In this document: in pieces, positions 5,846 to 62,590 of the stretch | Layout: every line of letters starts with the position of its first letter | Position numbering within the stretch: position 1 is the stretch's first letter | DNA from: Eledone cirrhosa | Lineage: Eukaryota | Length of the DNA stretch: 64,000 bases | Assembly: GCA_964016885.1 (NCBI GenBank) | Contig: OZ024742.1 | Span: forward strand, 112,468,001-112,532,000 | Direction: 5' to 3' | The notes under the pieces: generated by a model | What the model was told of the DNA's origin: nothing | Seen by the model: only the letters and a program-made list of their open reading frames with translations | Database searches by the model: none | Position numbers and translations under genes: made by a program

Positions 5846-6029
5846 AATAATTGTTTCTACTTTAGGCACAAGGCCAGCGATTACCCATAACATTACTGGT
5901 ACTTTATTTTATCGACCCCGTATGGATGAAAGGCAAAGTTAACCTCGGCGGGATTTGAACTCAGATTGTAAAGGGACGTAACTATGCTAGAAAGCATGGC
6001 GTCCAACCCTCTACCGATACTGCCAATTC
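5846..6029 (-). mobile_element. tRNA-derived SINE (Meta/MESC-core-like)
   Basis: Reverse complement of the copy at 15866-16052. A-box-like TGGCAGTATCGG, B-box GAGTTCAAATCC, core TTTGCCTTTCATCC..GGGGTCGATAAAATAAAGTACCAG. Confidence 0.85.
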
Positions 6030-6189
6030 AAATGGTTGGTAGTCATTACAATTACCTAGCTGTAGTAATTATTGCTAACTGGCAGTCGAATATTTGGAGA
6101 AAATGGAAATTGTCGTGAAATGTATTCATATATGTATATGCATATCGAGATCTCGCTTTTTCTCTCTCTTTCTCTCTCTCTCTGTATAT

Positions 6190-9800: not shown

Positions 9801-10080
9801 CTACGTGAAAGAAGAAATGAAAATAATGAAAAACCAGCACATAAATTCGACACTGTGAACCACATTCTGCTGTATGTATGTAGTAAGGGAGGGAGAGGGG
9901 TGGATGAGAGATACAGTGAGAGAGAGACAGAAGAGAGAGGTAGAGAGAGAGAAGAGAGATAGGGAAGATATATAGATAGAGAATGAGAGTGAGAGAGAGT
10001 GAGAAAGGAAAGTAACGGGAGAAAAGGAAATGGGGAGAAAAGAAGTCGCAGAATGTGTGTGAGATGAGAGGCACTGACAA

Positions 10081-10594
10081 TAAATAATTGTTTCTATTTT
10101 TGGCTCAAGGCCAGGAATTATCCCAGTGTATTACTGGTACTTTATTTTATCGACCAATTAAGGATGAAAGGCAAAGTTAACCTTGGCGGGATTTGAACTA
10201 AGAACATAACGAGTCGTAGCTCTTTGCTGCAAAGCATGGGGTCCGACCCTCTACTGATACTGCCAATGATAATAAATAATTGTTTCAATTTTTGGCACAA
10301 GGCCATCAATTACTCAGTACATTACTGGTACTTTATTTTATCGACCCCGTAAGGATGAAAGGGAAAGTTAACCTAGGTGGGATTTGAACTCAGATCATAA
10401 AGGGACGTAACGCTATGCTTCAAAGCATAGGGTCCGACCCTCTACCGATACTGCCAATCCACCACCAATGATAATAAATAATTGTTTCTATGTTAGGCAC
10501 AAGGCCAGCAATTATCCAGTGCATTACTGGTACTTTATTTTGTCGACCCAGTAAGGATGAAAGGCAAAGTCAACCGCGGCGGGATTTGAACTCA
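10081..10594 (-). mobile_element. Three head-to-tail SINE copies (10081-10266, 10272-10467, 5'-truncated 10475-10594)
   Basis: Same SINE consensus repeated three times, each joined by atgataataaataat. Confidence 0.9.
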
Positions 10595-10784
10595 TGATAA
10601 TAAATAATGTTGAATAGACTGTTTTGTCAGCTATTGACTAGACCAACGGTCATGCACTCTCACATATAACAAAAGCGAACGCACAAATCCGTTCATACAT
10701 ATTTGCTCATGCAAGCTCATAAACACATACAATATACATTTACAGACACACACACACACATATATACACACACGCACATACACT

Positions 10785-12465: not shown

Positions 12466-15385
<2,920 letters not shown>

Positions 15386-15865
15386 TTATATGTATATATT
15401 TATACATATGAAATGTGGGTAATATTAAATATTATCCAATTACAAGTATGAGAATAGCTCAATGTAAACTGGCAAGTATATTACAGAGCCGTAATTCTTT
15501 ATAAACAACAATCAAAGATTGTTTAGAATATTTACTCACTTACTATCGTGTCATTCTACTACACGGCCGAGGTCATCGGAGTATATAATAAAGGTTAAAA
15601 CACAAATATAAGATCAGAATGTTGTCATAAGCGCAGTTTGAGGATAACATAATGTGGGATGTAAGCATAGGTATCACAATTTTTATAAGAAGAGATAGCA
15701 AATGTAGAGGAAGCATAAGCATTTTTTTTTATTTGCTGTTATAGGGAAACCTGCTGCTATAAAGAAGTTAAGTATAGTGCAATACATATATTATTAGTAA
15801 ATAATCTTTATATCATAAGTATTTGATTTATGCTTTATTAGTAGACATTATTTAATCAATTAATG

Positions 15866-16052
15866 GCCGTGGATTGGCAGTATCGGTAGAGGGTCGGACG
15901 GCATGCTTTCCAGCATAGTTACGTCCCTTTACGATCTGAGTTCAAATCCCGCCGAGGTTGACTTTGCCTTTCATCCTTACGGGGTCGATAAAATAAAGTA
16001 CCAGTAATGAACTGGTGATTGCTGGCCTTGTGCCTAAAGTAGAAACAATTAT
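15866..16052 (+). mobile_element. Full-length tRNA-derived SINE (Meta/MESC-core-like)
   Basis: A and B boxes, core CTTTGCCTTTCATCCTTACGGGGTCGATAAAATAAAGTACCAG, AT-rich tail. The direct repeat attatttaatcaattaa on both sides (~15848 and ~16048) is a probable TSD. Confidence 0.9.
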
Positions 16053-17867
16053 TTAATCAATTAAAAACCTTTCGTCACACATTCTGTGACTAGTTGTGTT
16101 TTTTTTTCTTTTTCTGTATATCGTATTGGTTTTCTTCACTATTAGTGTATATATATTTAATGGCTAAATTGGCAAAAAAATCAACCCCAAATATAACAAT
16201 GTATGTTTCAGCACAATTTCACATTAAGAAATTTGCTGTACAAATACATAAACTTAAATAAACATTGGGTCTTTGGAAAATTATTGAGACCAAGAAAGAT
16301 CATGTTTAGAATTTGTTGAAAAACGTTTCGAAACTCGAACACGAGAAACCGCTGTTAAGGCAGCCAAATAACGTGACATGTATATTGGGTAAACATACCA
16401 CTAGGGACAGCGAACAATGGCCCATGATCACTATGTAGAGACAGAAAGATGTGAGATGGGTGAAAGGAAGATGATTGAGTGAGTAGTATTTGGAAATAGT
16501 GGTGTGATAAGTGAACGAGAAAAGGAAGAAAGTGGAGACTAATGTTACAATAAGTGTCAGGAATAAAGCCACAATATTTTCAAGACAATCGAAAATTACA
16601 GCTGTAACAACTTAAACCCCATCAGATAAGACGAACTGATAGACGAATCAAGGAGCGAGGAAATATACACACACCATCACATCGCCCGTACAAAGGAAAG
16701 GCAAAGCCCTATGCTGGAAGTGACAGGGAACATAATTGACATATAGGAGCAGCAAACCTTACCTGAAAAGGAGCACTCGAAGATATGGAAAACAAAAGAA
16801 TGTAGCCTGTCCCAGACCGTGCTATACCTGTATGTATATATATATATACAGAGAGAGAGAGAGAAAGAGAGAGAGAGCGAGATGTGTGTTTGTGTGGTGG
16901 AGGGGTGACCCTGGTGTATCTAAAATGATTCATAAATATTATGCAAATAATTTGTGATAATAAATGTCACAAGACTGTTTATGTGATGACAAAAAAATGT
17001 AACGCGGATATTATAGATATCAAGATATAGCTATACATACCTACAGATTGTGCTGCTGTAAAGTTATGTACCAATCCTGTAGGCTTGTTTATGTTGTTGA
17101 AACAATAAAAGAACTACAAATTTCGCCAATAATTCTTTGAAAGTAATGTTATTTTCCTTGCGAAGAAATGCCAATATGCCTGATTCTTCTCAAGTTTAAA
17201 GAAATGTATTTAATACTGAATATTTTGCTATTCATAAGCAATCACAAACCTCAAGTTTAATCGATATTCCATGACTATACAAGCCTTCAGCTTTTCCGTT
17301 ATGTGTCTCTATATATTTTTCTATTTTCTTGTCTCTTACCTTTCAAATGGTCTTATACATAACCGAATTTCTATGTTAGAGAAAATGATAAACAAATCTA
17401 CAATCTGTGGCTGGAGTTCTAGACTTTCAACAATGTTGTTCAGGTTTGCTTTCACGTGGCTTCAGATAAATGTGCTATAGAAAAAAAGGGGACACGTCGG
17501 CAATACATTATATAATGGCACACATTTTTTCATTATAGCTAGCCAATTCATGAAAGTATCAATGCATTAAAAAACATATTTGCGACTACAACAACGATGA
17601 GATTTACTTGTGTGATTGATATCGGGTGCGACTCTTATTGTAACATTATTTTCTACACAAACACACACATCACATGCATGTACGCACACACGTTGATACA
17701 GACGAGTGTGCACATGCACCCACACAGCCTTATGCATATATACTTATATTATTATAGAATTTTAAGCATAGAATATATATGTATGATATTATGTTGTACA
17801 CATTCATAGCCATATTGTTAACAATAAAAGTATATACATATACATACATATACATATACATATACAT

Positions 17868-23164: not shown

Positions 23165-23214
<50 letters not shown>

Positions 23215-23218
<4 letters not shown>

Positions 23219-24320
23219 TAAGTTAAAAATGTACATCTACATATGCATACTGAAATACTAGTGTGTATATGAATACACACACGTATACATATGTAGGTGT
23301 ACCAAGTCTTTCACTGGTCGCTTTGCAGTGAGCGGCCAGCTATTCTGTATGTAAACACACAGACAAACCGGTTTTTAGAGTCATACTGGTTTTTCGGGGG
23401 AACACCTTCCCCCTTTTCTTCAGAAAGCCAGACAAGGAATATTGAACTAGTTTCGTTGTTGTTACAACTCATCAGCAATATTTACCTATCTACCGGCCTT
23501 TCTGGAGAATTGTAAAAGCACATATCGTTATATGCTTTTTCTATGAAAATTAGTAGTGGGCAGACTAATTTGCATAGAGTGTGAGTACGCACCGGTTCAG
23601 CGGAGACGATAAAAACAAATAACGAAACGAAATTAAATTTCGTTTCGTTTGTAACTCACTTTTGTATGACTGACGCTTAAACAATTAAGTGAAAGACTTG
23701 GTACACCTACATATGTATACGTGTGTGTATTCATATACACACTAGTATTTCAGTATGCATATGTAGGTGTACATTTTTAACTTAATTGTTTAAGCGTCAG
23801 TCATACAAAAGTGAGTTACAAACGAAACGAAATTTAATTTCGTTTCGTTATTTGTTTTTATCGTCTCCGCTGAACCGGTGCGTACTCACACTCTATGCAA
23901 ATTAGTCTGCCCACTACTAATTTTCATAGAAAAAGCATATAACGATATGTGCTTTTACAATTCTCCAGAAAGGCCGGTAGATAGGTAAATATTGCTGATG
24001 AGTTGTAACAACAACGAAACTAGTTCAATATTCCTTGTCTGGCTTTCTGTAGAATAGGGGGAAGGTATTCCCCCGAAAAACCAGTATGACTCTAAAAACC
24101 GGTTTGTCTGTGTGTTTACATACAGAATAGCTGGCCGCTCACTGCAAAGCGACCAGTGAAAGACTTGGTACACCTACATATGTATACGTGTGTGTATTCA
24201 TATACACACTAGTATTTCAGTATGCATATGTAGATGTACATTTTTAACTTAATTGTTTAAGCGTCAGTCATACAAAAGTGAGTTACAAACGAAACGAAAT
24301 TTAATTTCGTTTCGTTATTT

Positions 24321-24325
<5 letters not shown>
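23215..24325 (+). mobile_element. Retrozyme-like insertion of a 468-bp unit: one inverted unit (23215-23690) plus ~1.36 tandem units (23688-24325), flanked by (TA)n
   Basis: tgaaagacttggtacacc recurs at ~23689 and ~24157 (468-bp period). The left part is a near-perfect reverse complement. Each unit contains a hammerhead and no credible ORF. Confidence 0.8.
23988..24032 (+). ncRNA. Type I hammerhead ribozyme, canonical core (inverted copy at 23438-23482 on -)
   Basis: aatattg-CTGATGA-gttg taacaa caac-GAAA-CTAG-TT^-caatatt. 7-bp stem I, 4-bp stem II, palindromic stem III AACTAGTT. Confidence 0.9.
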
Positions 24326-24360
<35 letters not shown>

Positions 24361-24746: not shown

Positions 24747-27011
24747 TCACTCGAAATCTGCTAATAGCAATGGACGGTAACGCTTGAAAAAGTGATAAGA
24801 CATTCAGACACTATTTACCGTGTTCATCCTCATATTGGTCAGTTGTATGTATTTGCTTTTCCGAATCACTTAGATTTACATTGTCTGTCATTAATTATTA
24901 TTGACGTTTAAAGCAACGTAAAGCCTCATGAGTGTCGCGTTAAATCAATATCAGTTTCAGCGGATGTGGAGGCATACATAAACATCACAGTTAGTAGTGT
25001 ATTAACAGATTTGCTTCATCTTTCATTTTCTCTATATATCTTTCATTCATAGTCTGGAGCCGACATATGTTTCGTATTTGAAATTTTCTAAAATAAAAGT
25101 GTGCATACATTCATCCAAGGTACATTAATATTCCTTCATGGAAGACTTAATCAGTTGGTAGTTATCAGACCACAAGCCGTTCGACGCAGGTTTCCCTTCA
25201 GAGGGAAACATTTGCTGATATTCCTGCTGTAGTTCCCTGACTGATAAAAGCAAATAGGAAATACAAACATCAAACTAAACTGAAGGTTGTCGTATATAAA
25301 GACATGTCCATTAATCTTAATCCTCTATAACAGTAAAATAAACTGCGTCGCTATATACCAAGTATTAATTTATTTCTTCAAGTGAGATGAAACTTAGTTT
25401 GCTTATTAGATTGCGATGACGGTTGATCTTGAGCAGAATGCATTAACAGATTTGAATAAAAAACCGACTATACGTGTACACGCTGTAATATTATGATTTC
25501 AGGCTTCTCTATGCAACTTACCACGAAAAGAACAAACCAAATTGTTGATGTGGCAAAGTTTCAATGATTGATTTGCTTCTTGGTTAATGCTGATATCGAC
25601 ATACATCATGTCAAGAAAATATTGTTAATTTCGAATAAGTGGTTAAATCTGGCTCAATTGTCCAGGTGAATGCATCATTGAAATCACACATAAATCACCT
25701 TACTGTCTTAGAAATTAAAAGACATATTTTATAATGTGATTGCAGATATTTGCAACTTCATAAAATAGACGAGGTGCGTATATTTGGAACGCCTTAGATC
25801 ATAGATGTTCACAATTATCATGGATTTCGGGCGAAGAAACTTCGGGCGAAGATTCAGTAATGTCTATTATTAAATCGGATGAACAACTATACACATGACC
25901 TGTGCTCCACAGCACATCTCCAAGCAGTACAGGGATCTTCCAACTTGGTTATAAATTCAATACAGCAAAACAAATTGCGAGATCAGTTAGCAGTTTCAAT
26001 GGATCTTTTCCCACATGTCTGGGTAGCGCATTTGACGTTCTGCCCAATGGAGCAAGTTGCTATCATAAGAATTCATTTCAAAGATACATTTAATTATCAC
26101 AATTAACGTATTTATTTTTAATCTGAATTAAATTACTAATTTAAAATAATTATGATTTTTTTTTTACATTCATTACAATTGAATCTATATCAAATACGAA
26201 AAGTAAATGTCAATGAAACCGAAGACAGAGCATTCGCATGGTCACACAGACATTCATTCCTAAATTTACGTAAAATATATTCGTTCATACATACATTCAT
26301 ACATACATACGGACATACATACACACATACATATATACATTTGGATTTAATGCTCTGAAAGAGCGATATATATGTGAAGACAAACATAGAATATTCGAAA
26401 ATATTCTGTATGTTTATAATAAACATTTTGAAGACCTAATCGCTATAGAATAGAATACGTCACGTATTACAATTTGAGATTCTCGATAAAAGCAAGGGAA
26501 GTAACCTACGCGTTTCATTCTTATTTGAAATCATCAGGATTACATATCCAATGCTTTTATCGAGAATGACGCAGCTAGAGACTTATAGAATACTTAGCTG
26601 TGTACAGAAACTGGTTTGAAAGAGCGGTTGCCGGTCCGGCAGAAATTAGAATTTGGATTTAATGCTCTGAAATAGCGATATATATGTGAAGACAAACATA
26701 GAATATTCGAAAATATTCTGTATGTTGATAATAAACATTTTGAAGACCTAATCGCTATAGAATAGAATACGTCACGTATTACAATTTGAGATTCTCGATA
26801 AAAGCAGGTCTTCAAAATGTTTATTATAAACATACAGAATATTTTCGAATATTCTATGTTTGTCTTCACATATATATCGCTATTTCAGAGCATTAAATCC
26901 AAATTCTAATTTCTGCCGGACCGGCAACCGCTCTTTCAAACCAGTTCCTCTACACAGCTAAGTATTCTATAAGTCTCTAGCTGTGTCATTCTCGATAAAA
27001 GCATTGGATAT

Positions 27012-27054
27012 GTAATCCTGATGATTTCAAATAAGAATGAAACGCGTAGGTTAC
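27012..27054 (+). ncRNA. Type I hammerhead ribozyme, copy 1
   Basis: gtaatc-CTGATGA-tttc aaataa gaat-GAAA-CGCG-TA^-ggttac. Palindromic stem III ACGCGT. Enclosed by the 16-bp helix attctcgataaaagca/tgcttttatcgagaat. Confidence 0.9.
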
Positions 27055-27323
27055 TTCCCTTGCTTTTATCGAGAATCTCAAATTGTAATACGTGACGTAT
27101 TCTATTCTATAGCGATTAGGTCTTCAAAATGTTTATTATAAACATACAGAATATTTTCGAATATTCTATGTTTGTCTTCACATATATATCGCTATTTCAG
27201 AGCATTAAATCCAAATTCTAATTTCTGCCGGACCGGCAACCGCTCTTTCAAACCAGTTCCTGTACACAGCTAAGTATTCTATAAGTCTCTAGCTGCGTCA
27301 TTCTCGATAAAAGCATTGGATAT

Positions 27324-27366
27324 GTAATCCTGATGATTTCAAATAAGAATGAAACGCGTAGGTTAC
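27324..27366 (+). ncRNA. Type I hammerhead ribozyme, copy 2 (third copy at 26501-26543 on -)
   Basis: Identical to 27012-27054 and 312 bp downstream. Confidence 0.9.
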
Positions 27367-28928
27367 TTCCCTTGCTTTTATCGAGAATCTCAAATTGTAA
27401 TACGTGACGTATTCTATTCTATAGCGAGTAGGTCTTCAAAATGTTTATTATAAACATACAGAATATTTTCGAATATTCTATGTTTGTCTTCACATATATA
27501 CATTTGTATTAACCGCACACCTACATTCGAATGAGTCGATATTGTTCAATCGAGGAAGGCAGTGAATTTGGATTGAACCTGTCACTGAGTAGTTTCAGTT
27601 TAAATTCCCTCATCACACAACTAAACCAACATTCTTTCTTATGTTGACTCCCTTCCCATTTCATATTCTCATTGGTTCTATGAAACAATTATCAAGTGTA
27701 AGTGTTTACAATAGTCGATTCAATCAACTAAACCAGATCTATATCAATATACTGTGTGTATTGCTAATGTTGGAAACTAATACGTTTTATACAACTGATG
27801 AAGAAGAGGAAAAAAAAAATAACAAAAAACTGAAGATAAAAATTAGAAACATTAGGGCAAATGATATCGTTCTAACTTAGACTGAAGAGGTTGCTACTTT
27901 AATCTATCTATATAAGCAATTACATTTGTCAGTCTAGTGTTTGTTACATTTACACGTACAGAAACCAAGATAGGATGTATCACATCTTTAGTACCATCAC
28001 ATATTTATGTGAAAGTCAATAAATGAGGTGAAATGAGAAAATAATTCTTAAGGCTAGTACTCACATGCGTGTAGCAAATACTATCTTTTTACTCTCCCTT
28101 AACGTATACAATATGACTTTTGTAAGAAGCAATGCTGTAGAGATAATATCATTGAACAGCGAAATACGAATTAAGTAATACCATAGAAAAGGACAGCAGC
28201 TTAATTGTCTTGGTCGCTTTTACAACGCGACACAATAATATCTAGACATGTGAGTTGTCACACCTGCACTGTGCTAAATGTCGAAATGAGTATCAGATAT
28301 TTTTTTCAACCAATTCATTACTAGAGAAGCGGGTGAGTGAAAAGATAATCTAGAGTATATACAATGTAATGTTTACCTGTTTCTGTATTTAGTTCAGTTC
28401 CACACGTTTCTCTTTTTAAATAATAATGTTCGTGTGTCCTATTTACATTTACTTTGCTGCAGCACTTGTTATTGTTCGATTTCGTTCTTCATTCATTTAA
28501 ATCAAATGTAATAATTTTAATCATAAAAAAAGTGAATTATTCTCAAATTGCCTTCATAAAGCTTCCTCTACATTCCAAGCCAAGACAAATGTCAGGAAAA
28601 AACACTAAATAAATAGGTTCTAAATTTTTACGTCTCTTATCAACTGAGTGCGTAAAACGTTATAACAGATTATAAAACCTTATAATACTTTTTTTTTTAA
28701 ATTCTTTTACGATAAGATTAATGTTAGATTAATGGGTTCTATATAGGTATATACACATATAGATTGTTAACATGATCTCTTGATGAATATGCATATCATT
28801 TGATTGTGTAGATACATTTAATTTGATTGAGATTCTTGTATATTTTTTTTTAATATATAGCTTATATGGTTAACAGTTCTAATGAACTGTAAATCATTCA
28901 TGCATTTATGTTTTTGTGTATTTATTCT

Positions 28929-30682: not shown

Positions 30683-30966
30683 AAGGTTTCTCACACGCAC
30701 CCTCTGTATTATATGTACATTTGTTCATGTCTCAATCTTAAGGTATATAAATATTGAGTTTTTGGCATATCTTATTCACTACCATGACTGAATCGTAACC
30801 ATCAACTATGTCAGGATATGTCATGCATCATCTTATTTTATCTGATGAGGACGTACTGTTGAAGTTAGCTCAGTACCTCTGAAATATGTATAATAAAATA
30901 TATTTGAGCACACGAATGTCTATTTTTGTTAATATTTGAATTAATATATATATATATATATATACT

Positions 30967-31064: not shown

Positions 31065-31369
31065 CAAATGCTGAGTTGCTCACAAATATTCTACGCGTTG
31101 GTTCGGTTCATTGTTGTTGTAGTCAAAGAATATCATAGGTGTTTTCTGCAGCGCGCGTGAGGCAAGTTATAAATAGTATTATTTATATGTATAAGAATGC
31201 GATAAATAAAGAATGGGAGCTAGTGTGAGGAAGGGAAACAGTATTATTGAGATTAGAATAGTGTGAATAGAATTGGGCACCTCTGTGCACACTTTAACCT
31301 ATTATCTCTCTTTCTTTCACTCACATCATTCTATTTCTCGCGACGCATCGGTAGTGACGTACATTTTAA

Positions 31370-31745
31370 AATAAGTGTTTCTACTTTTGGCACAAGGCCA
31401 GCAATTACCCAGTACAATACTGGTACTTTATTTTATCGTCCCCGTAAGGATGAAAAGCAAAGTTAACGTCGGCGGGATTTGAATTCAGATCGTAAAGCGA
31501 AGTAACTATGCTGGAAAGCATGTCCGACTCTCTACCGATACTACCAATAATTGTTTCTACTTTTGGCACAAGGCCAGCAATTACCCAGTGTATTACTGGT
31601 ACTTTATTTTATCGACCCCATAAGGATGAAAGGCAAATTTAACCTCGGCGGGATTTGAATTCAGAATGGCAAGGGCCGTAACTCTATGCGTCAAAGCATG
31701 GCGTCCGACCCTCTACCGATACTGCCAATCCACTGCCAATCCACT
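31370..31745 (-). mobile_element. Two tandem SINE copies
   Basis: Consensus repeated at ~31370-31548 and ~31549-31740. Confidence 0.9.
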
Positions 31746-32999: not shown

Positions 33000-35900
33000 T
33001 ATTTACGCTGTTACAGTTTGTTCAAAAGAATGCTGTTGATGACAACAGTCTTAGTAGACTGGGTTTCCTTCAGAAACACTCAGACATTTTCTTTTCGTAT
33101 TCCGCGGCTAAGGGCTACAACAGTTAACCGTGTTGGAATACAGGTCATTCCAGATAAACCAAGACGTTTTCCATAGTTTGTCCTTGTGCTTTATGAATAG
33201 TCATAGCGAAGCACGATTGAACTTGGAATTGGCTTCGGGGCAAAGGGATATCCTCAACTTCGGATAGATTAATTCTTATTCTAGGTATCATAACGATCTC
33301 ATTTCTGAAAGCATCAGTGTTGATTCTTGTTACTATGAGATTGTCGTGCAGTTCTTCCACGATCATGCGCGTTCCATAACAAAGCCTTTGAGGATTCAAG
33401 TTTCTCATGAGAATTATTGGCGATCCTTTTTTCAATTTAAGGTTATGTGGTGGCAGTTCTGATAGTTCAACCAAATCAAGGAATTCAGTCGGGAAATGAG
33501 TGGCACTGGCACCATCACTCACAGAAGTATAGGATCCGTACTCTTTTATGGTTCCAGGGAAGCGTGTGGTACATGTGGAATTGATGCTTCTCATCATTTC
33601 ATTGACAGGTACTAAGATGCAATTGTTCGAAAACACTTCAGCTGCATTGTCGAATGAGGGGTAGATGAAATCAATACATTCTTCAATAGTTGTTGCTTGG
33701 AGAACCATTTCTTTCGCAAACTAATTTCCCCATTTTCAGTTTTTGTTACCTTATCTTCTCTAATATCCAATAGGAACTGTGAATAGTCTCCTGCTCCCCA
33801 CCCAATCGCATGTTTGTCTTCAACTGAAATCTTTTGAAGATTCGCCATAAGTAGGATTTTTTAATGCAGGCGTTTTCCACGTCCGCTTCATTTTCCCTTT
33901 TTACTACCGAAGGAAGCTGACGTAAATCGCCACAGCAAATTGACACAATTCTACCGAATGCCTCATTGTTGTCGCATATGTCACCCAGAGTGAGGTCAAC
34001 AGCTTCGAAGCTTTCCCTCCGAATCATCGGACAATCATTCCAAACAATGAGGCTTGAATGCTGGAAGAGGTTTCCCGTCTTTCAGTGTTTATCAATGTTG
34101 CACAGACCATTTTCTTTCTTTCACTACTATCGGTATTTTGAACCTAGAATGCGCTGTTCTTTCACCAGGCATCAGTGTTGCGGAAATGCCAGATGCTGCA
34201 ACAGCAATAGCCACGTCAAAGATTCCCCTGACTTTTGAAAATAATTAAGTTAATCAGGAGTGTCTTTCTTGTTCCACCTGGAGCGTCAATGAAAATCAAT
34301 GCAGATGTGTTCGTCTCTAAACTGTTAAAAACGAAGTCGTACACGTGTTTTTCACTATTCGTCTCTACTCTTCTCTGCTGTATTGCAATTCATGCAATAA
34401 CTCCAAATTGCCAATATCCTGATCAATATTATTTGGCCTTGGCAAGTTAAAGTCACTAAGACTTTTGCTCAGGTCGTTAAGTTTGTCTTCAAAATACAGA
34501 ATACATTGATCAACATGTCTCTCGCTAATCAAAATGTTAGAGTTTCTGGTAGCCCTTTTTTCTATTTGATGGTAATCCTCAGACAGCGAATGCTTAAATC
34601 GAATACATAAATCACTGGAATTGTCAATTTCCGTATTTCTGAGGAGCACGATGAATAGATCCCTCACAGCTTTGGTAAGCCTTGTTCGCTCAGCATCTTC
34701 CAGAGTCTGCTGCCAATGATCATCCATTGAAGCAAACCTTTCTCTCTGTAGACGTCTTTGAATAATGGCAGGAGTTCTCCATCACACATTTTCAAAGAGT
34801 TGAAGGATACTGGCCCTTTGACGTGTTGCAGAAGGAGTCTTAAATAATACAGGTCACAACTTCGTGGAGAAACAGTGTATACTCGTCCCAAAACGTTCGC
34901 CTCAAAAATCATGGATACTGCTCAACTGTTTCCCCAACCTTTCTCCTTCGGCATAATACAATGTTTTTGCAAACGGATCGCGATCGCAAGGATCCATGAA
35001 CTCAGTCAGAGTCGTCTTAGCCATGTTATTGTTTACTTTAACAGCAGCATTGACCCGAAAGAAGATTTGATTTTCCTCAGGTAGATGAAGTTGAAGGCGA
35101 ACTACGGGCGGTTCTTTCTGACGAATTGGAAATCCAAGTACCAAGTCAACAGCTTCTGAAGGACCGATATATCTTCCTGTTAAATACTGTATTATCTCAT
35201 CTTCCCTGTTCACTCCAAACATTGCCCGATCACTGCCCTTCATGGTATATTTGATAATGTATTTGATCGATTTCACGGAAGAGCACATATCTACGTTTAG
35301 GTGGCAGTTGAACAGTTTCAATAGATACATATTTTAGGGAACCACCCATTCCGAAGTTATAATTCGGCTTCCCCTTTCTTCTTGGTGCACCTCAAATCCT
35401 CCCATTCCCGGAGACCGTCTTCTGTACACAGGATAAGAGTCCTCTCCACACAATGTATATTCATTGAAATGCTTAGGGTACCGCTTACTGCACGTTCCAT
35501 CTTTCTAACACGGCGAATTGTTAGAGCAATTCGGACCGTGGATAATGTGCTTCAGCACCACTTCATAACCCTCTGGATCTTTGATTGGATCTGGTATTTC
35601 GGCTTGAACAAATTTATCATATTCTTGCGGTCTGGGCTTGGAGGATTCATTGAGCCATAGCAAACAGTGCACATGAGGAAGACCTCGATTTTGATATTCG
35701 ACTGACAGCACATAAGCAATGCACTTGCCAAATAGGCCATCTACTCCAGTAATATACTTTCTTAACAGTTTCCGGTTCAGGTCAAATACTCTGGCAATTA
35801 AATCTGGCCTGTCATGTGGCTTCTGATTCAGGAATAGGTTTTGCCGGATTTCAGGTCAGTTTGGGTTGCATGTCATTGTGATGAAGACAAAGGATTACCG

Positions 35901-37400
35901 TATTTCAGTATGTAAATCATGGTATCCTGGCATCGCTCCATCATATATCTCGGTCCACCGACAAATATCATTCGCCAATATTGCGAAAATCGTCATCATC
36001 ATTCAATGCGTCAGTAAGGCCCTTGTATGTTGTAGATCGAAATGATGTTTGATTCATTTGGATGTATTGCAGCCTATCTCCTTCAATCTTCGCAGCCATG
36101 TCAACCAAATATTGCTGAAACAAACTACCGCCTCTGAGGAGTTAGTTAAATTCATCGTCATGGTTCATTATTCGATAGCCATAGTAGCGCATTGGAGTCA
36201 ACTTCTTGTTGTTGGTCATTAACAGCTCATGATGCAATCCGTCATCGCCAAAAGGAAACAACTAGAACATACTGCAAACTGTCATAGGACCGATGGAAAT
36301 CTGAGATTATTTGCAATTGTCCGCCTTTTTCTCTCAACACAATGTGCCGTGATGTTCCTTGAAGTTCGGTGCTGTTTTGTATAATAACGGCAACTTCGTT
36401 TGCAATTTGTGCATTGAATCTTCTCTCATGTTCCATTGCTGGTCTCCCATCAGGATCAATAATAGTCGAAGTTTCGGTAATATTTTTAATTTCTTCTTTT
36501 GCCTTTCGAAATGAAGCAACGTAAGGGTTATATTGTCTGAGTATTATTTCCAATAGTTCGACTATGTCGCGCTGAAATGCCATCGTTATGGAGTATCCTG
36601 ATCCTCACATCAACACTATCCTGAAGATCCAAGAAGTAAATTTGAAGAAATTTGGGTTGTTGGTTGGGATTAGGGATTAAGGAACCGATGTAATGGTGAA
36701 TTTGACCATGAATAACGATAGAAGGATTCCATCCACTCCTTGAGGAACGAACTTCTTCGGTCCCAAAAGATGTCATTTGGAACAGGCAGTTGTATTGTCT
36801 GAGGTTCCTCCTGAACTCGTTTGCCCTAGCTGGATCAGTACTAAATAAACTGTGAAGTTCCTGGGGTAAAGGCTGCAGATTACCCAACCTGACTATTCCA
36901 TTCATACAGCAACAGTTAGTAGTTTCACCATGAAAAAGCATTGCATGACAACAGACACATATCTTATTCGTCTGTCAGCAGAGAGGTCACGTCGTTGAAC
37001 TGTCCTTGCTCTATCCCTAATGGTTTGTTGGCAAATACTTTCAGTTCTCTGAGCGTCCGATTCATGATCTCTCCTTCTTCTGTCTCTCTCCCTCTGTTCC
37101 GCCTGACGCTCAGCTCTCCGACCATCCGATTCATGATCTCTCCTTCTTATGTCTCTTTGCATCTGTTCCGCCTGACGCTCAGCTCTCCGACCATCCGATT
37201 CATGATCTCTCCTGCTTCTGACTCTTTTCCCCTGTTCCGCCTGACGCGCAGCCCTTGCTTTATCAGTCTCATCGATCCTTCTGTTTGTATGCCTGTCCCG
37301 AACTTGTTGGCGTTGACCACTATCTTGCTCACCTTCTTCGGCTCTACTTAGCCGTGCTTTCTTTCCACTATCGATAGCCCAGCCATATTGTTTCTTTCTT
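33000..37400 (-). pseudogene. Helitron RepHel (HUH/Y2 Rep plus PIF1-like SF1 helicase), multiple stops and frameshifts
   Basis: FRRNLRQYNCLFQMTSFG, GQIHHYIGSL, RSYDSLQYVL, FITMTCNP, DRPDLIARVF, VEYQNRGLPHVHCLLW (HUH), IKYIIKY..KGSD (Y2), LYYLRLLL, FIDAPGGTRKT, GDLRQLP, CFAMTIHKAQGQT, VALSR. Confidence 0.95.
37055..37255 (-). repeat. 66-bp coding tandem repeat (~3 copies) in the RepHel N-terminus
   Basis: ccgattcatgatctctcct recurs every 66 bp. Encodes RRRDHESDGRRAERQAEQ-type repeats. Confidence 0.85.
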
Positions 37401-40515: not shown

Positions 40516-42088
40516 TTATACATACATATATACATGTACACACACATACATGTACATACACATTATACACACACATACACATATACACACATATATATAT
40601 ACATATATATATAGACATATGCTCCTACCCAGGCATTACAGGTGGTTATGAACCATAATGCCCTTAGTCAGTAACGCATGAATCTATGGATGCTAAAAAA
40701 TTAAAAGGTTAAAAAATAAAAAAAATAAACAGAAAGGCGTATAATTAGGGGAAGGTGATACTAACAAATCGTACGTCACATAGAACTATAGTGAGTTGCT
40801 ATTTAGAATGTTTAATTAGGTTTATAGTACTTAAATGTTCTTCGTATACGGTGATTACAAGCTATAATCAGTCCTGTCTTTTATTCAAAACATCGTCCTT
40901 AGATTTATTATTTCCAAGATCTTCCCGGAACATAATCTGCATTCTCTCCTGTTCCCAAGATATGGAGTTCTTTGCAGAATGGTATTCCATGATAGCTTGG
41001 AATCTATTTTTTTTCTTTTTATAGTTATTTACTGCTTCAGCTAATGATGTGGTGTTAGCTAGTTTAGTAATGTTAAAGCTACTGGAATGTGCGTAATATA
41101 TTTTCTTAAATGTGTTCGTTCGATGTAGATCCTATATATGATTTGTTGGATTCCGCAGTAGACACAGTGCATTTATATATTACATTGTTAATCAAACAGT
41201 TGCCAGTTAAGGGGCAAACATTTCTATTTCTGCAATTACAACCATACGTAAGATGGTTGTTGGTGTACCTACATAATTCTCATTAATCCTTGAGTTATTC
41301 TTATTGTAATTAATGTTAGAGAGAGAATGAGTGCTGCTTTGTGGGTGATTTAGTGCTGGGGTTGTATTTTGATTTTGTGTTATGTTGTTTTTGTGTTGGT
41401 GATTTGGGTTGTTGTGTTTTCCAGGTTGAAGGATTGTATTATTTGTCCTTTTAAAAGGTGCAGTCTTATTTAAATTATATTGTGGTGGTGTGGTCATATT
41501 ATCCTTAAATGTATAAATGTTGTAGTTGCATTGTGTGATCTAGAGTATGAGAATTTAACAGTATACCTGTTAAATATTTGTTGGCATCTGTGGTTTAGTG
41601 GAAAATATTTATGTAGAAATACTAAACTAGCTAACACCACATCTTTAGCTGAAACAGTAAATAATTATAAAAAGAAAAAAATAGATTTCAAGCTATCGTG
41701 GAATACCATTCTGCAAAGAACTCCATGCCTTGGGAACAGGAGAGAATGCAGATTATGTTCCGGGGAGATCTTGGAAATTACTAAATCTAAGGACGATTTA
41801 TTGAATAAAAGACAGGAAATGATTATAGCTTGTAATCACCGTATACGAAAAATATTTAAGTACTATAAACCTAATTAAACATTCTAAATAGCAACTCACT
41901 ATAGTTCTATGTGACGTACGATTTTTTAGTATCCCCTTCCCCTAATTATACGCCTTCCTGTTTATTTTGTTTTATTTTTTAACCTTTTACATTTTTAGCT
42001 TCCATGCTTTACTGACTAATGGCATCAAGGTACATAACCACCTGTAATTGCATGGGTATATATGTATCTATGTATGTATGATAGGAGA

Positions 42089-53702: not shown

Positions 53703-53732
<30 letters not shown>

Positions 53733-53839
53733 GTATTTTCCGTTGTGTTGTAATATAAATATTACACACAGTAGATTAACAGCTCACGTAGAGTTTGCTC
53801 GACGGTTCCAGTTGAAATTCCAAAAGTAATCCGGAGAAA

Positions 53840-56434
53840 AATAGAAAGATTTGAATGGATACAGTTTAGTTGAAAGGAATTTATTGACACGTGTTTCTAT
53901 AACAGTTACATAACCTGAAAACAGCTGCTATCTACAAAGTATTAGTGATGCAGACAAGCAATATTTCAATGTTATTATTTACTGTCATTTCATCAGAATA
54001 ATATTACTGAGGACCTGTTTGGTTTTTATAGAAAATATTAGGAGAGAGGGGTGAAGTTGTTAGAATAATAGTTGAGGGAGTGGTTTTTTGATACCAGTGA
54101 GAATTTTTGGTGGCAGTGAGTAATTAGATTCCCATCTGTTGTTTTGACATTTTTATAGAATATATTATTGGTTATTTTTCTAAATCTATAGAGGGATTAG
54201 AGATAGTAAAGATATGCGTGGTTGGTTTTGTGTTTGCACTTAATTAACATTCAGACTTAAATTTTTTTTTTCTTTTCAGTGTACGTATCCTTTCACCCAC
54301 GCATTCTCACACAAACATATTTGCACCCCTCTACAAAATACATATACTCACATTCACATAGTAACATGTTCATACTTACATACATATACACATGCATACA
54401 TATATATATACACACATGTATTCATGTACATACATACGCGTTCATGTGTGTACATTTTCATACTCAACATATCTTTATATACACACGTATAGACACACAC
54501 ATATATACATACTCTAGTCTATGTGTATATATATACATATACATATATATCTATCTATATATATATATATATATATATATATAAGCACTTTAATACATGA
54601 ATACACTTACATCTAACTATACACATCAAACATATATATATAATTACATATTTATATACATTTTCACATATATATACATACTTATGGTCGCTTTTAGACA
54701 CATTCATTATCGCATTTTTGCACCTATTCTCATCAGCATACCTTTCCATTATTAGTGTGGTAATTTGAGGTTATTAATATACATATATATGTTGAGAAGA
54801 AATTGTTTTTATATTTTTCTAACTAGATTGAGGTCTATATAGTTGGGGGGATGTCCCTCTTTTATGTAATATTCGGCTTGTAGTGGGAAAAAAGGGTTTT
54901 AGTTCGGTGACGGCAAAATAATGTTCGTTCAATTCTGTTATTCAGCAATTTCTTCTTGTGTGTGATTAGGACTAACTATAACATATGAATACAACCTTAA
55001 AGTAGTTAACTTCCTGGATGTCACACTCAATTTAAACTCTGGTCTGATTAAACCGTCTCATAAATTGAATGAAAATCTCAAATACGTAAATGTTGGGTCT
55101 AACCACCCCATCTCTATAATTAAATCTATCCCTAAAAATATTTCCATTAGAATCTCGGGTCTATCTTCTAACATACAAGTATTTAAGGAACACGCCGAAT
55201 ACTACGATAACGCCCTTAGTAAAGCAGGCCACCTCAACAAAATAGAGTATATAGATGGGAACAATCAAAACACCCAAAATAAATCCCACATAGGTAGATA
55301 TAATAACACAACACCAAACCACACTTACTACCATAGTATGCACACCAGTAAACCAACAAACAAAACTAATAGAAAGCGATGCAAAAAGTACTTATGGTAT
55401 AACCCCGAATACAATAGTTCCATTAGTACAAATTTACCAGTACTCTTCTTTAAAATAATTAAGAGGCATTTTCCTACATCACACACATACCACAAAATCC
55501 TAAACCCTACCACTATAAGACTGTCATACTCTACAGCGTTAAACCTTAAACAACACATACAAAAGATCAATACTAGAAGGTTAAACGAAAACACTAAAAA
55601 CTTAAGTACAAAGAACACAAAAAAAGCAGTAGACAATACACTACAGAACATAAATAAACCACACCTAAGTTCGTCCGCAATACTACTCCAGAGAAAACTC
55701 AACGTACACAACTGTAACTGCACCTATCCTGACAACTGCCCCCTCGGCAATAACTGCCTGGAAAAAAATATTATTTATAAGTGTACCATTAAATCCGGAG
55801 GCAACGAGTGGTATTACGTGGGATCAACGGCAACATCGTTTAAATCTCGATTATATAGGCATTCTTACTCAATAAAACACCAGAGCCAAAGAAATGTAAC
55901 AACTTTAGCAGAAAAAGCTTGGACGCTCAGGGATAGCGATCAAAATTTACCCTAAAATGGGAGAAATTAGCTAAAACCCAAAGCTTTTCCAGGAGCCAAC
56001 ATTTCTGCAAATTGTGTAATCTTGAGATTTATTACATAATCACACACAAGAAGAAATTGCTGAATAACAGAATTGAACGAACATTATTTTGCCGTCACCG
56101 AACTAAAACCCTTTTTTTCCCACTACAAGCCGAATAATACATAAAAGAGGGACATCCCCCCCAACTATATAAACCTCAATCTAGTTAGAAAAATATAAAA
56201 ACAATTTCTTCTCAACATATATATGTATATTAATAACCTCAAATTACCACACTAATAATGGAAAGATATGCTGATGAGAATAGGTACAAAAATGCGATAA
56301 TGAATGTGTCTAAAAGCGACCATAAGTATGTATACATATGTGGAAATGTATATAAATAAGTACATATATATATATGTTTGATGTGTATAGTTAGATGTAA
56401 GTGTATTCATGTATTAAAGCGCTTATATATATAT

Positions 56435-56522
<88 letters not shown>

Positions 56523-57215
56523 GTATATATATATACACATAGACTAGAGTATGTATATATGTGTGTGTCTATACGTGTGTATATAAAGATATGTTGAGTA
56601 TGAAAATGTAAACACATGAACGCGTATGTATGTACATGAATACATGTGTGTATATATATATGTATGCATGTGTATATGTATGTAAGTATGAACATGTTAC
56701 TATGTGAATGTGAGTATATGTACTTTGTAGAGGGGTGCAAATATGTTTGTGTGAGAATGCGTGGGTGAAAGGATACGTACACTGAAAAAAAAAAAAAAAA
56801 ATGTAAGTCTGAATGTTAATTAAGTGCAAATACAAAACCAACCACGCATATCTTTACTATCTCTAATCCCTCTATAGATTTAGAAAAATAACCAATAATA
56901 TATTCTATAAAAATGTCAAAACAACAGATGGGAATCTAATTACTCACTGCCACCAAAAATTCTCACTGCTATCAAAAAACCACTCCCTCAACTATTCTTC
57001 TAACAACTTCACCCCTCTCTCCTAATATTCTCTATAAAAACCAAACAGGTCCTCAGTAATATTATTCTGATGAAATGACAGTAAATAATAACATTGAAAT
57101 ATTGATTGTCTGCATAACTAATACTTTGTAGATAGCAGCTGTTTTCAGGTATGTAACTGTTATAGAAACACGTGTCAATAAATTCCTTTCAACTAAACTG
57201 TATCTATTCAAATCT

Positions 57216-57222
<7 letters not shown>
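53840..57222 (+). mobile_element. Young 5'-truncated PLE with ~1.13-kb near-perfect inverted arms (53840-54975 and 56030-57222)
   Basis: Arms match almost base for base except for microsatellite length. The spacer encodes the RT thumb, linker and GIY-YIG. Confidence 0.92.
54980..56135 (+). pseudogene. PLE ORF 3' part: RT C-terminus, Cys-rich linker, GIY-YIG endonuclease (tentatively Naiad-like), frameshifted after 55955
   Basis: VNFLDVTLNL, YVNVGSNHP, WYNPEY, HKILNPTTIRLSYS, CNC..CPLGNNCL..IIY..YYVGST..FKSRLYRH, then KWEKL..CKLCNLE and LLNNRIE..CRHR in shifted frames. Confidence 0.9.
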
Positions 57223-61712: not shown

Positions 61713-61889
61713 AAATTTAGGATGATCACAAGATAAAACTAGCAAATGTGTATAGTCTTTGTTTCCGTAAGCGGAACAGAGTGAAAAATAGGTATGTTAG
61801 TATTTTAGATATGGTATTAGTTCTCAACTGCGTCGGTTCAATTAAGAATATTACCTTTCTTCATGCGTTGCCACTTATCATTTATTATG

Positions 61890-62073
61890 AATTGGCAGTA
61901 TTGGTAGAGGGTTGGACGCCATGCTTTCTAGCATAATTACGTCCATTTACTGTCTTAGTTCAAATCACGTGGAGGTTAACTTTGCCTTTCATCCTTACGG
62001 GGTCGATGAAATAAAGTACCAGTAATATACTGGGTTATTTTCTTGGCCTTGTGCCAAATGTAGAAACAATTAT
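61890..62073 (+). mobile_element. SINE copy
   Basis: Matches the family consensus. Confidence 0.85.
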
Positions 62074-62292
62074 TTTTACCCCCAAATCGGGTATGTAATA
62101 CATTTTGTTGGGTTTAGGATTTTAGATACATGACAAGATCTTTAACGAGTATAGAGTGGGAGCCTAGATTTGAATGACGAAAATCACCAATTTGATTGGA
62201 CAAGCATTCGATACAGATTACTTTTTGGTGTATATATATTACTGTTATTCTATCAAATCCATTATAAAATATATTATTATTTAAGTGGAAGT

Positions 62293-62590
62293 ATGGCAGT
62301 GGATTGGCTGTATCGGTAGAGGATCGGACACCATTATTTGAAGCATAGAGTTATGGTCCTTTAGGATCTGAGTTTAACTTTGGTTAACTTTGCCTTTCAT
62401 ACTTACGGGGTCCATCAAATAAAGCATCAGTAATGCACTCGGGTCGATTTAATTGATTGTTACCTTCCCGTCAAAATTACAGGCCCTGTACCTAAAGTGG
62501 GAATCATTATTTAAGCGGAAGTAGAGTGGTGGATTGGCAGTGTCGGTAGATCATCGGATTCATGCTTTGTGCTCTGAGTTCGAATCCTGT
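62293..62590 (+). mobile_element. Older SINE copy (longer 3' subfamily) plus a partial second head
   Basis: Head ggattggctgtatcggtagagg, core, extra gggtcgatttaattgattg segment. Second head at ~62525-62590. Confidence 0.75.

Follow-up and report, generated by a model that had tools for sequence, protein, structure and literature searches.

The window studied here, a stretch of 64,000 nucleotides from contig OZ024742.1 of the Eledone cirrhosa assembly GCA_964016885.1, contains an insertion of a non-coding element whose 312-bp unit carries a hammerhead ribozyme motif. The element is young, mobile, present in many copies and dispersed, and the window holds one insertion of it. This insertion was probably made by the enzyme of a Penelope-like element (PLE), which would have copied a 312-nt circular RNA in two directions at a single cut, TA-rich site.

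The original prediction for this locus had described a non-coding 312-bp unit repeated about 3.7 times almost identically, and this description is borne out: the copies total 3.7 units and are 99% alike, and the unit has 34% GC and no ATG frame longer than 34 codons. It had also taken the 3.7 units for a single tandem array, which was wrong, as they form a minus arm of 468 bp and a plus arm of 695 bp, joined by their 5' ends and lying head to head inside a 15-bp target-site duplication (table 1). The head-to-head inversion, the target duplication, the targeting of (TA)n and the two fixed ends go beyond that earlier account.

Insertion anatomy of a dispersed family

The genome-wide copy search that had been proposed with the prediction found the 312-bp family dispersed over many contigs. 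In the 3.0-Gb genome of the animal itself the whole unit gave 429 candidates, of which 40 were scored, with 248 matches. Shorter patterns were counted against reversed controls, each of which gave 0: the 33-nt ribozyme motif has 124 exact copies, the exact context of the cut site 1,656, and the tail pattern 1,777 matches at no more than two mismatches. The stem-loop module (unit bases 61-168) is matched 21,997 times and is common to sister units of 310, 311, 316 and 320 bp; a more distant, older family gave 2,851 candidates, and contigs from three other organisms carry pieces of the unit of 162-342 nt with 6-9 differences. The matches are unevenly divided between the strands (736 versus 1,041 for the tail pattern, 669 versus 987 for the cut-site context), which hints at at least one very long one-way array outside the loci read. 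One contig of 342 nt (the unit plus 30) covers 26969-27310 and has the shape expected of a tandem array or a circle; it comes from a sequencing run (run X4, record 10) that says nothing on expression.

Insertions were compared at 121 loci. The first set of 72 consists of the window, 39 top hits and 32 loci from pattern lists; the second, of 49, includes sister units, and 6 of its loci were fetched for a G at unit base 312 (312G), 1 for T311C and several for length. Head-to-head arms were found at 97 of the 121 loci, and 86 of these 97 combine one short end with one long end. In the first set, 10 loci are single-armed and 62 have head-to-head arms; a short and a long end are combined in 56 of these 62, none of them has two short or two long ends, and 6 have one odd end. 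In those 56 loci the short end lies at unit bases 128-151 (mode 141) and the long end at 160-176 (mode 168), leaving a tail of 27 nt between the modal ends, or about 35 nt if counted from base 133. The second set comprises 35 head-to-head, 1 complex and 13 single loci, the ends of the 35 being short and long in 30, both long in 1, both short in none and odd in 4. The combination of one short and one long end, present in 86 of the 87 loci having two standard ends, suggests a separate start site for each strand of the target. The same fixed, asymmetric ends largely refute the idea that the unit is a minisatellite amplified and inverted at the DNA level by slippage, unequal crossover or fold-back repair. 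Such an origin would account for the tandem units and for the few changes common to adjacent units, which suggest later local duplication, but it leaves the target duplications, the dispersal over contigs and the (TA)n targeting unexplained, and it is the least probable of the explanations weighed here.

The short ends also carry a trace of the target. Of 94 terminal passes, 57 read CATA, with a target-like T at base 133, and 31 read CACA; internal passes read CACA in 332 of 337. Judged by this T, the primer provided by the target is likely to pair with the AUAUAUAU box (unit bases 134-141), and copying likely begins near 132-133. Both end points lie within the stem-loop module, which we infer to be the signal for the start of reverse transcription, and the geometry of the target duplication in the window suggests that both complementary DNAs (cDNAs) copy the hammerhead-sense strand. 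Target duplications measure 11-17 bp at three further loci (L037, L034 and L058) and are elsewhere mostly hidden in (TA)n. The inner ends of the arms are random in position, and among 59 two-segment loci the inner junctions overlap by 1-5 bases in 31, are blunt in 12, have a larger overlap in 2 and contain extra bases in 14. The arms consist of unit sequence only, and no long terminal repeat (LTR) structure was seen, although no search for a primer-binding site or polypurine tract was made. Loose ends in TA were found at both end points in contigs of one sequencing run (X1), and no joint spanning an empty site was found among contigs of four runs; these runs are uninformative on expression.

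At L109:3642-4794 a chimeric head-to-head insert combines the short end of the 312-bp unit with the long end of a 467-bp family, and at L087:4191-about 5500 the short end of the unit is combined with the long end of a coding PLE. Two RNAs may have been used in one event; both chimeras obey the rule of one short and one long end, but they are only two cases, and deletion between neighbouring inserts is possible. At L039:5813-6600 a short minus arm adjoins a long degenerate GGGTTA tract.

Table 1. Features of the 312-bp insertion, in window positions
Feature	Position	Strand	Remarks
Left 15-bp target-site duplication	26329..26343		last 5 bases also match the long end of the element
Inverted arm, 1.5 units	26339..26806	-	runs from unit base 13 at the inner end to 168 at the outer, long end
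Tail, unit bases 141-168	26339..26366	-	outer end of minus arm only; matching arms beyond it, 26367-26806 and 27061-27500
Hammerhead motif, type I (predicted)	26501..26543	-	predicted cut between 26507 and 26506
Head-to-head junction	26806..26806		1 base common to both arms
Direct arm, 2.2 units	26806..27500	+	runs from unit base 70 at the inner end to 140 at the outer, short end
Hammerhead motif, type I (predicted)	27012..27054	+	6-bp stem I, core CUGAUGA, GUA site; cleavage predicted after 27048
Predicted monomer of 312 nt, from one cut site to the next	27049..27360	+	unit numbering starts at 27049
Strand of 16-bp helix closing the ribozyme	27061..27076	+	partner 26988-27003 (multimer) or 27300-27315 (monomer or circle)
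Stem-loop module, unit 61-168	27109..27216	+	common to 310-330-bp sister families; contains both fixed end points
Second plus-strand hammerhead motif	27324..27366	+	predicted cut after 27360
Right 15-bp target-site duplication	27492..27506		first 9 bases also match the short end of the element

The footprint of a Penelope-like element

PLE copies are described as carrying an inverted 5'-truncated copy and a tail of 30-40 bp at one end, with a preference for microsatellites (PMC8557442, PMC3846280), and a purified anole PLE cuts and extends both strands, two internal start sites of reverse transcription bounding the tail (PMC11167929). The 312-bp family has the same traits: an inverted copy joined at the 5' ends, a one-sided tail and an AT-rich or microsatellite target, the flank being TA-rich at 71 of the 72 first-set loci. 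This anatomy, followed across the genome, supports the retrozyme reading, the mobilisation by PLEs and the rolling reverse transcription of a monomer that the original prediction had put forward, and it is much stronger evidence than was available then.

Autonomous PLEs coexist with the unit in this genome. A coding family with many uninterrupted frames of 785 codons (70,890 candidates in the protein search) lies in (TA)n and follows the same two-end rule, its ends being 108 nt apart. Reverse transcriptase (RT) and GIY-YIG/CCHH motifs were read in it by eye, and 2 of 108 homologues have PF00078; Pfam gave 0 hits for the 785-aa protein and a PDB sequence search gave no name either, so that the motifs and the homologues are what point to PLE identity. 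In both coding families examined the hammerhead is a different one, and their tails are about 108 and about 60 nt long.

The original prediction had offered as an alternative that the unit is merely the pseudo-LTR of a longer coding PLE; the loci would then be heavily 5'-truncated insertions of it. On the one hand, the tail, the inversion and the (TA)n targeting are typical of PLEs, a match to PLE pseudo-LTRs is reported for Xenopus retrozymes (bioRxiv 10.64898/2026.07.22.740005), PLE coding pieces adjoin the unit in L033 and L087, and the search for a partner covered a sample of the genome. On the other hand, the arms repeat the unit up to 11 times over, uninterrupted by any open reading frame (ORF), neither the unit nor its arms contains an RT/GIY-YIG ORF, and the PLE at L033 and L087 carries its own, different hammerhead and ends. 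The module profile, applied to the 900 nt downstream of 68 endonuclease ends, scored the inserted unit alone (L033, L066), and no ORF joined to the module was found in 20 and 29 sister-family loci. The pseudo-LTR origin is thus not borne out in the loci read, and we regard it as very improbable.

The hammerhead motif and its RNA as the probable template

An intact type I hammerhead had been predicted in each complete unit, and three complete motifs were found, two on the plus strand and one on the minus strand. The sequence bears out the tandem arrangement of the plus-strand motifs with their two predicted cuts, the palindromic stem III ACGCGT is present in the motifs, and so is the enclosing 16-bp helix, in which unit bases 13-28 pair with 252-267. 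This helix is included in the fold of the monomer, which is more stable than all 100 shuffles (z -4.07). Stem II is weak, with a U.U pair at its base followed by only three more pairs. The Rfam scan that had been suggested as a check matched all three copies, although to Hammerhead_HH9 and below threshold (20.1 bits, E 0.25; gathering score 52), and Hammerhead_1 was not listed. The core, stems and covariation of the motif are those of a type I hammerhead, its Rfam match being sub-threshold only. In a 310-311-bp sister family, seen at L129, L142, L143, L144, L199, L200 and L219 with arms of up to 10.5 units, the basal pair of stem II is in some cases a standard A-U.

Stem III is palindromic in 321 of the 334 motif calls upstream of the module, some motifs having been parsed twice. 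In sister families stems I and II are altered with their pairing kept; in distant sister families stem III is still palindromic, but of different sequence, and C3-G8 is swapped for U3-A8. The retention of the palindrome and of the pairing suggests selection for dimeric cleavage, under which the ribozyme appears to stand. The stem III self-duplex was computed at -7.5 kcal/mol, and for the axolotl hammerhead HHR_Amex2 weak cleavage of the monomer and good cleavage of the dimer are reported (PMC7229834).

Information about the template comes from the arms. Of 118 arms, 85 are longer than one unit, the longest having 10.9 units, and they cross the cut site 268 times, never with an indel. Inner ends fall within 5 nt of the cut site in 3 of the 118 arms, with 3.8 expected (Kolmogorov-Smirnov p 0.09). 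The lack of enrichment at the cut site, together with the indel-free crossings, rules out a cleaved linear monomer as the template and leaves a circle or an uncleaved multimer. Bases private to a locus extend through every unit in both arms. At L045 a G at base 116 (116G) is found in 19 of 19 passes over both arms, and its exact pattern gives 18 matches, at this one locus only in the assembly; 312G is locus-wide at three loci of different haplotypes (5/5, 5/6 and 4/4 passes) and absent from four other loci of the 108C/126T type read alongside. Because a change that arises in a single unit can spread to all units of a daughter locus only if copying passes through one monomer, these private bases favour a single monomer, and the template was likely one monomer, probably a circle.

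The two-sided insertion could also have used an uncleaved linear read-through transcript from an array already present, with the ribozyme dispensable or used at another step. The main substrate of the anole PLE is uncleaved RNA (PMC11167929), the hammerhead motif of the unit is weak, arrays with GUG at the cut site exist, some arrays are mosaic, and the missing 5' ends at the cut site suit a linear template as well as a circle. However, a new base on such a transcript would mark one unit, whereas the private bases fill both arms; there is no donor for 116G elsewhere in the assembly, and the three haplotypes with locus-wide 312G have close kin with A. Moreover, young loci include arms of 8-11 units, and the core and the palindrome covary across sister families. 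We therefore consider a linear template unlikely.

If the template was a circle, the array would be transcribed by read-through, and the transcript would be cut by its hammerheads, probably acting as dimers by way of the palindromic stem III, and then ligated to a monomer circle. AT-rich DNA would be cut with a stagger, in trans, by the GIY-YIG endonuclease of a PLE, and both target 3' ends would prime reverse transcription on hammerhead-sense RNA. The two priming sites would be fixed: at one the primer would pair over about 8 nt with the box at unit bases 134-141, and the other would lie at about base 168. Each enzyme would circle the template 0.1-11 times, and the two cDNAs would join through 1-5 nt of microhomology, completing each other.

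Several observations weigh against this copying of a circle by a PLE enzyme. With regard to the ribozyme, the lowest-energy fold of the isolated motif differs from the active fold, a double hammerhead was not obtained when two motifs were co-folded, and 8 of 9 Xenopus dimers are reported to show no cleavage in vitro (bioRxiv 10.64898/2026.07.22.740005). With regard to the template, mosaic loci would need later duplication or template switching if it was a single circle: two changes occur in 3 units of one arm of L034, 190T is found in 3 of 6 units of L064, and the window itself is mosaic, with C at base 248 in 2 of 3 units. It is also possible that the donor of 116G is missing from the haploid assembly. 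With regard to the enzyme, the anole PLE, besides its preference for uncleaved RNA, could prime with no need of homology (PMC11167929), and tblastn with two PLE proteins and the module profile found no coding PLE sharing the module in the sampled genome. Finally, the loci, drawn from top hits and pattern lists, are a non-random sample; of the 121, 23 have a single arm, and at 10 of the 97 with head-to-head arms one end departs from the standard.

Known systems, possible editing and neighbouring elements

By its sequence characteristics (size, GC content, one motif per unit, non-coding nature and target duplications of more than 4 bp) the family would be classed as a non-LTR retrozyme, and it behaves like a non-autonomous PLE. 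The metazoan non-LTR retrozymes (Cervera and de la Pena 2020, PMC7229834) are also short, low-GC, non-coding tandem units with one type I hammerhead each, have target duplications of more than 4 bp and coexist with PLEs; tandem cDNA templated by a circle was proposed for them, and retrozyme mobilisation by this route, driven by PLEs, is thus a published hypothesis. The axolotl HHR_Amex2 / Rtz353 resembles the window motif in two details, the basal U.U of helix II and a helix III of only 2 bp (PMC7229834). What differs in the 312-bp family are the head-to-head arms, the fixed asymmetric ends and the (TA)n, the word 'inverted' being absent from the main text of that work; expression and cleavage were demonstrated there, whereas the family described here is known from DNA sequence. 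The Xenopus non-LTR retrozymes are likewise non-autonomous hammerhead tandem units tied to PLEs, but their link consists of co-occurrence and pseudo-LTR similarity (bioRxiv 10.64898/2026.07.22.740005), whereas here it consists of the footprint left by the insertions, and none of the loci read yielded a similar pseudo-LTR.

The endonuclease-containing (EN+) PLEs (Penelope/Poseidon, Neptune, Nematis and Naiad) share with the family the inverted 5'-truncated copy, the one-sided tail, microsatellite targets, a variable target duplication, a hammerhead upstream of the ends and two start sites (PMC8557442, PMC3846280, PMC11167929). In contrast to them, the 312-bp family has no ORF and forms whole-unit multimers in both arms, and its short end would pair over about 8 nt with the target, homology not being needed by the anole PLE (PMC11167929). 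Chlamys elements such as MRC1 are also non-coding dependants of PLEs with multicopy insertions, but they are often head to tail, resemble the 3' ends of autonomous elements and belong to a clade described as having no canonical hammerheads (PMC8557442). In the main texts of the literature searched, whose supplements may list related families, neither this insertion footprint in retrozymes nor such a family was found reported. The element is a candidate non-LTR retrozyme whose insertion architecture was not found described for that class in the literature, Dfam and Repbase lying outside the comparison.

In L1 twin priming the RNA is primed by both strands of the target, and the outcome is a head-to-head inversion with microhomology at the junction. 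The 312-bp family differs from this in that its priming sites are fixed, with about 27-35 nt between them, and in that each of the two arms can be longer than the monomer. The family offers a direct genomic footprint of PLE-type integration acting on a retrozyme, with mapped start sites, a module in cis and a defined target, and it bears on an open question about PLEs, the origin of their inverted copies and tails. The mapped start sites, the module and the target, together with the young intact PLE frames in the same genome, make a reconstitution test straightforward. If the proposed route is true, a 312-nt circle has been written many times into TA repeats, which is relevant to RNA-templated DNA insertion.

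As a tentative extension, possible but doubtful, the insertions may be records of rolling-circle, two-sided PLE copying of single circles that fossilise adenosine-to-inosine edits, including one of the cut-site adenosine. If this is true, such an edit would lock the circle against re-cleavage. Base 312 stands in the context UAG, which is favoured by ADARs. 312G is found in 7 places (17 matches), compared with 1,656 unchanged copies, while C or T at base 312 and T311C have 1 occurrence each. Among single-unit changes A>C plus A>T number 25 and A>G 18, and against this background G in 7 of 8 changes at base 312 is unexpected (p about 0.01). Locus-wide private changes, counted in 88 of the 121 loci, are A>G in 9 of 24 cases, compared with 18 of 194 single-unit changes (p 0.0007), and in 6 of 19 once two loci fetched for 312G are dropped (p 0.011). 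The duplex that closes the ribozyme contains 17 of 95 adenosines but 6 of 7 A>G sites (p 0.0002, the region having been chosen post hoc). Against editing, the excess of A>G over T>C is not significant, either in full (9 versus 4, p 0.16) or after removal of 5 rows that come from the two 312G-selected loci (6 versus 4, p 0.53), and A>G within a helix is tolerated as G.U, which could be favoured by selection alone. In minimal hammerheads G17 is strongly deleterious, which is not the case in those stabilised by tertiary contacts (PMC3884650).

Other elements are present in the window. A second family with hammerhead motifs occupies 23211-24328, where a 467-bp unit lies head to head in (TA)n, with motifs at 23475 (minus strand) and 23995 (plus strand) and outer ends 69 nt apart; it recurs at other loci. 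At 53731-57221 there is a 5'-truncated PLE with an inverted arm and a tail of about 108-110 nt, whose frame at 54966-55955 ends in a GIY-YIG/CCHH-like domain and which has hammerhead-like motifs at 53996 (minus) and 57067 (plus). Further hammerhead-like motifs are located at 30842 (plus) and 51783 (minus), the former recurring in L095 downstream of a PLE endonuclease end. PLE-like coding fragments were recognised by motifs read by eye at 13691-14077 and 41474-41878, the latter also with a tblastn match. Broken frames on the minus strand at 33145-37399 have motifs like those of a Helitron Rep/Pif1 helicase. An abundant, unrelated repeat of about 190 bp, partly tandem, occurs at 10075-10604, 5846-6030, 15864-16055, 31369-31738 and 61888-62442.

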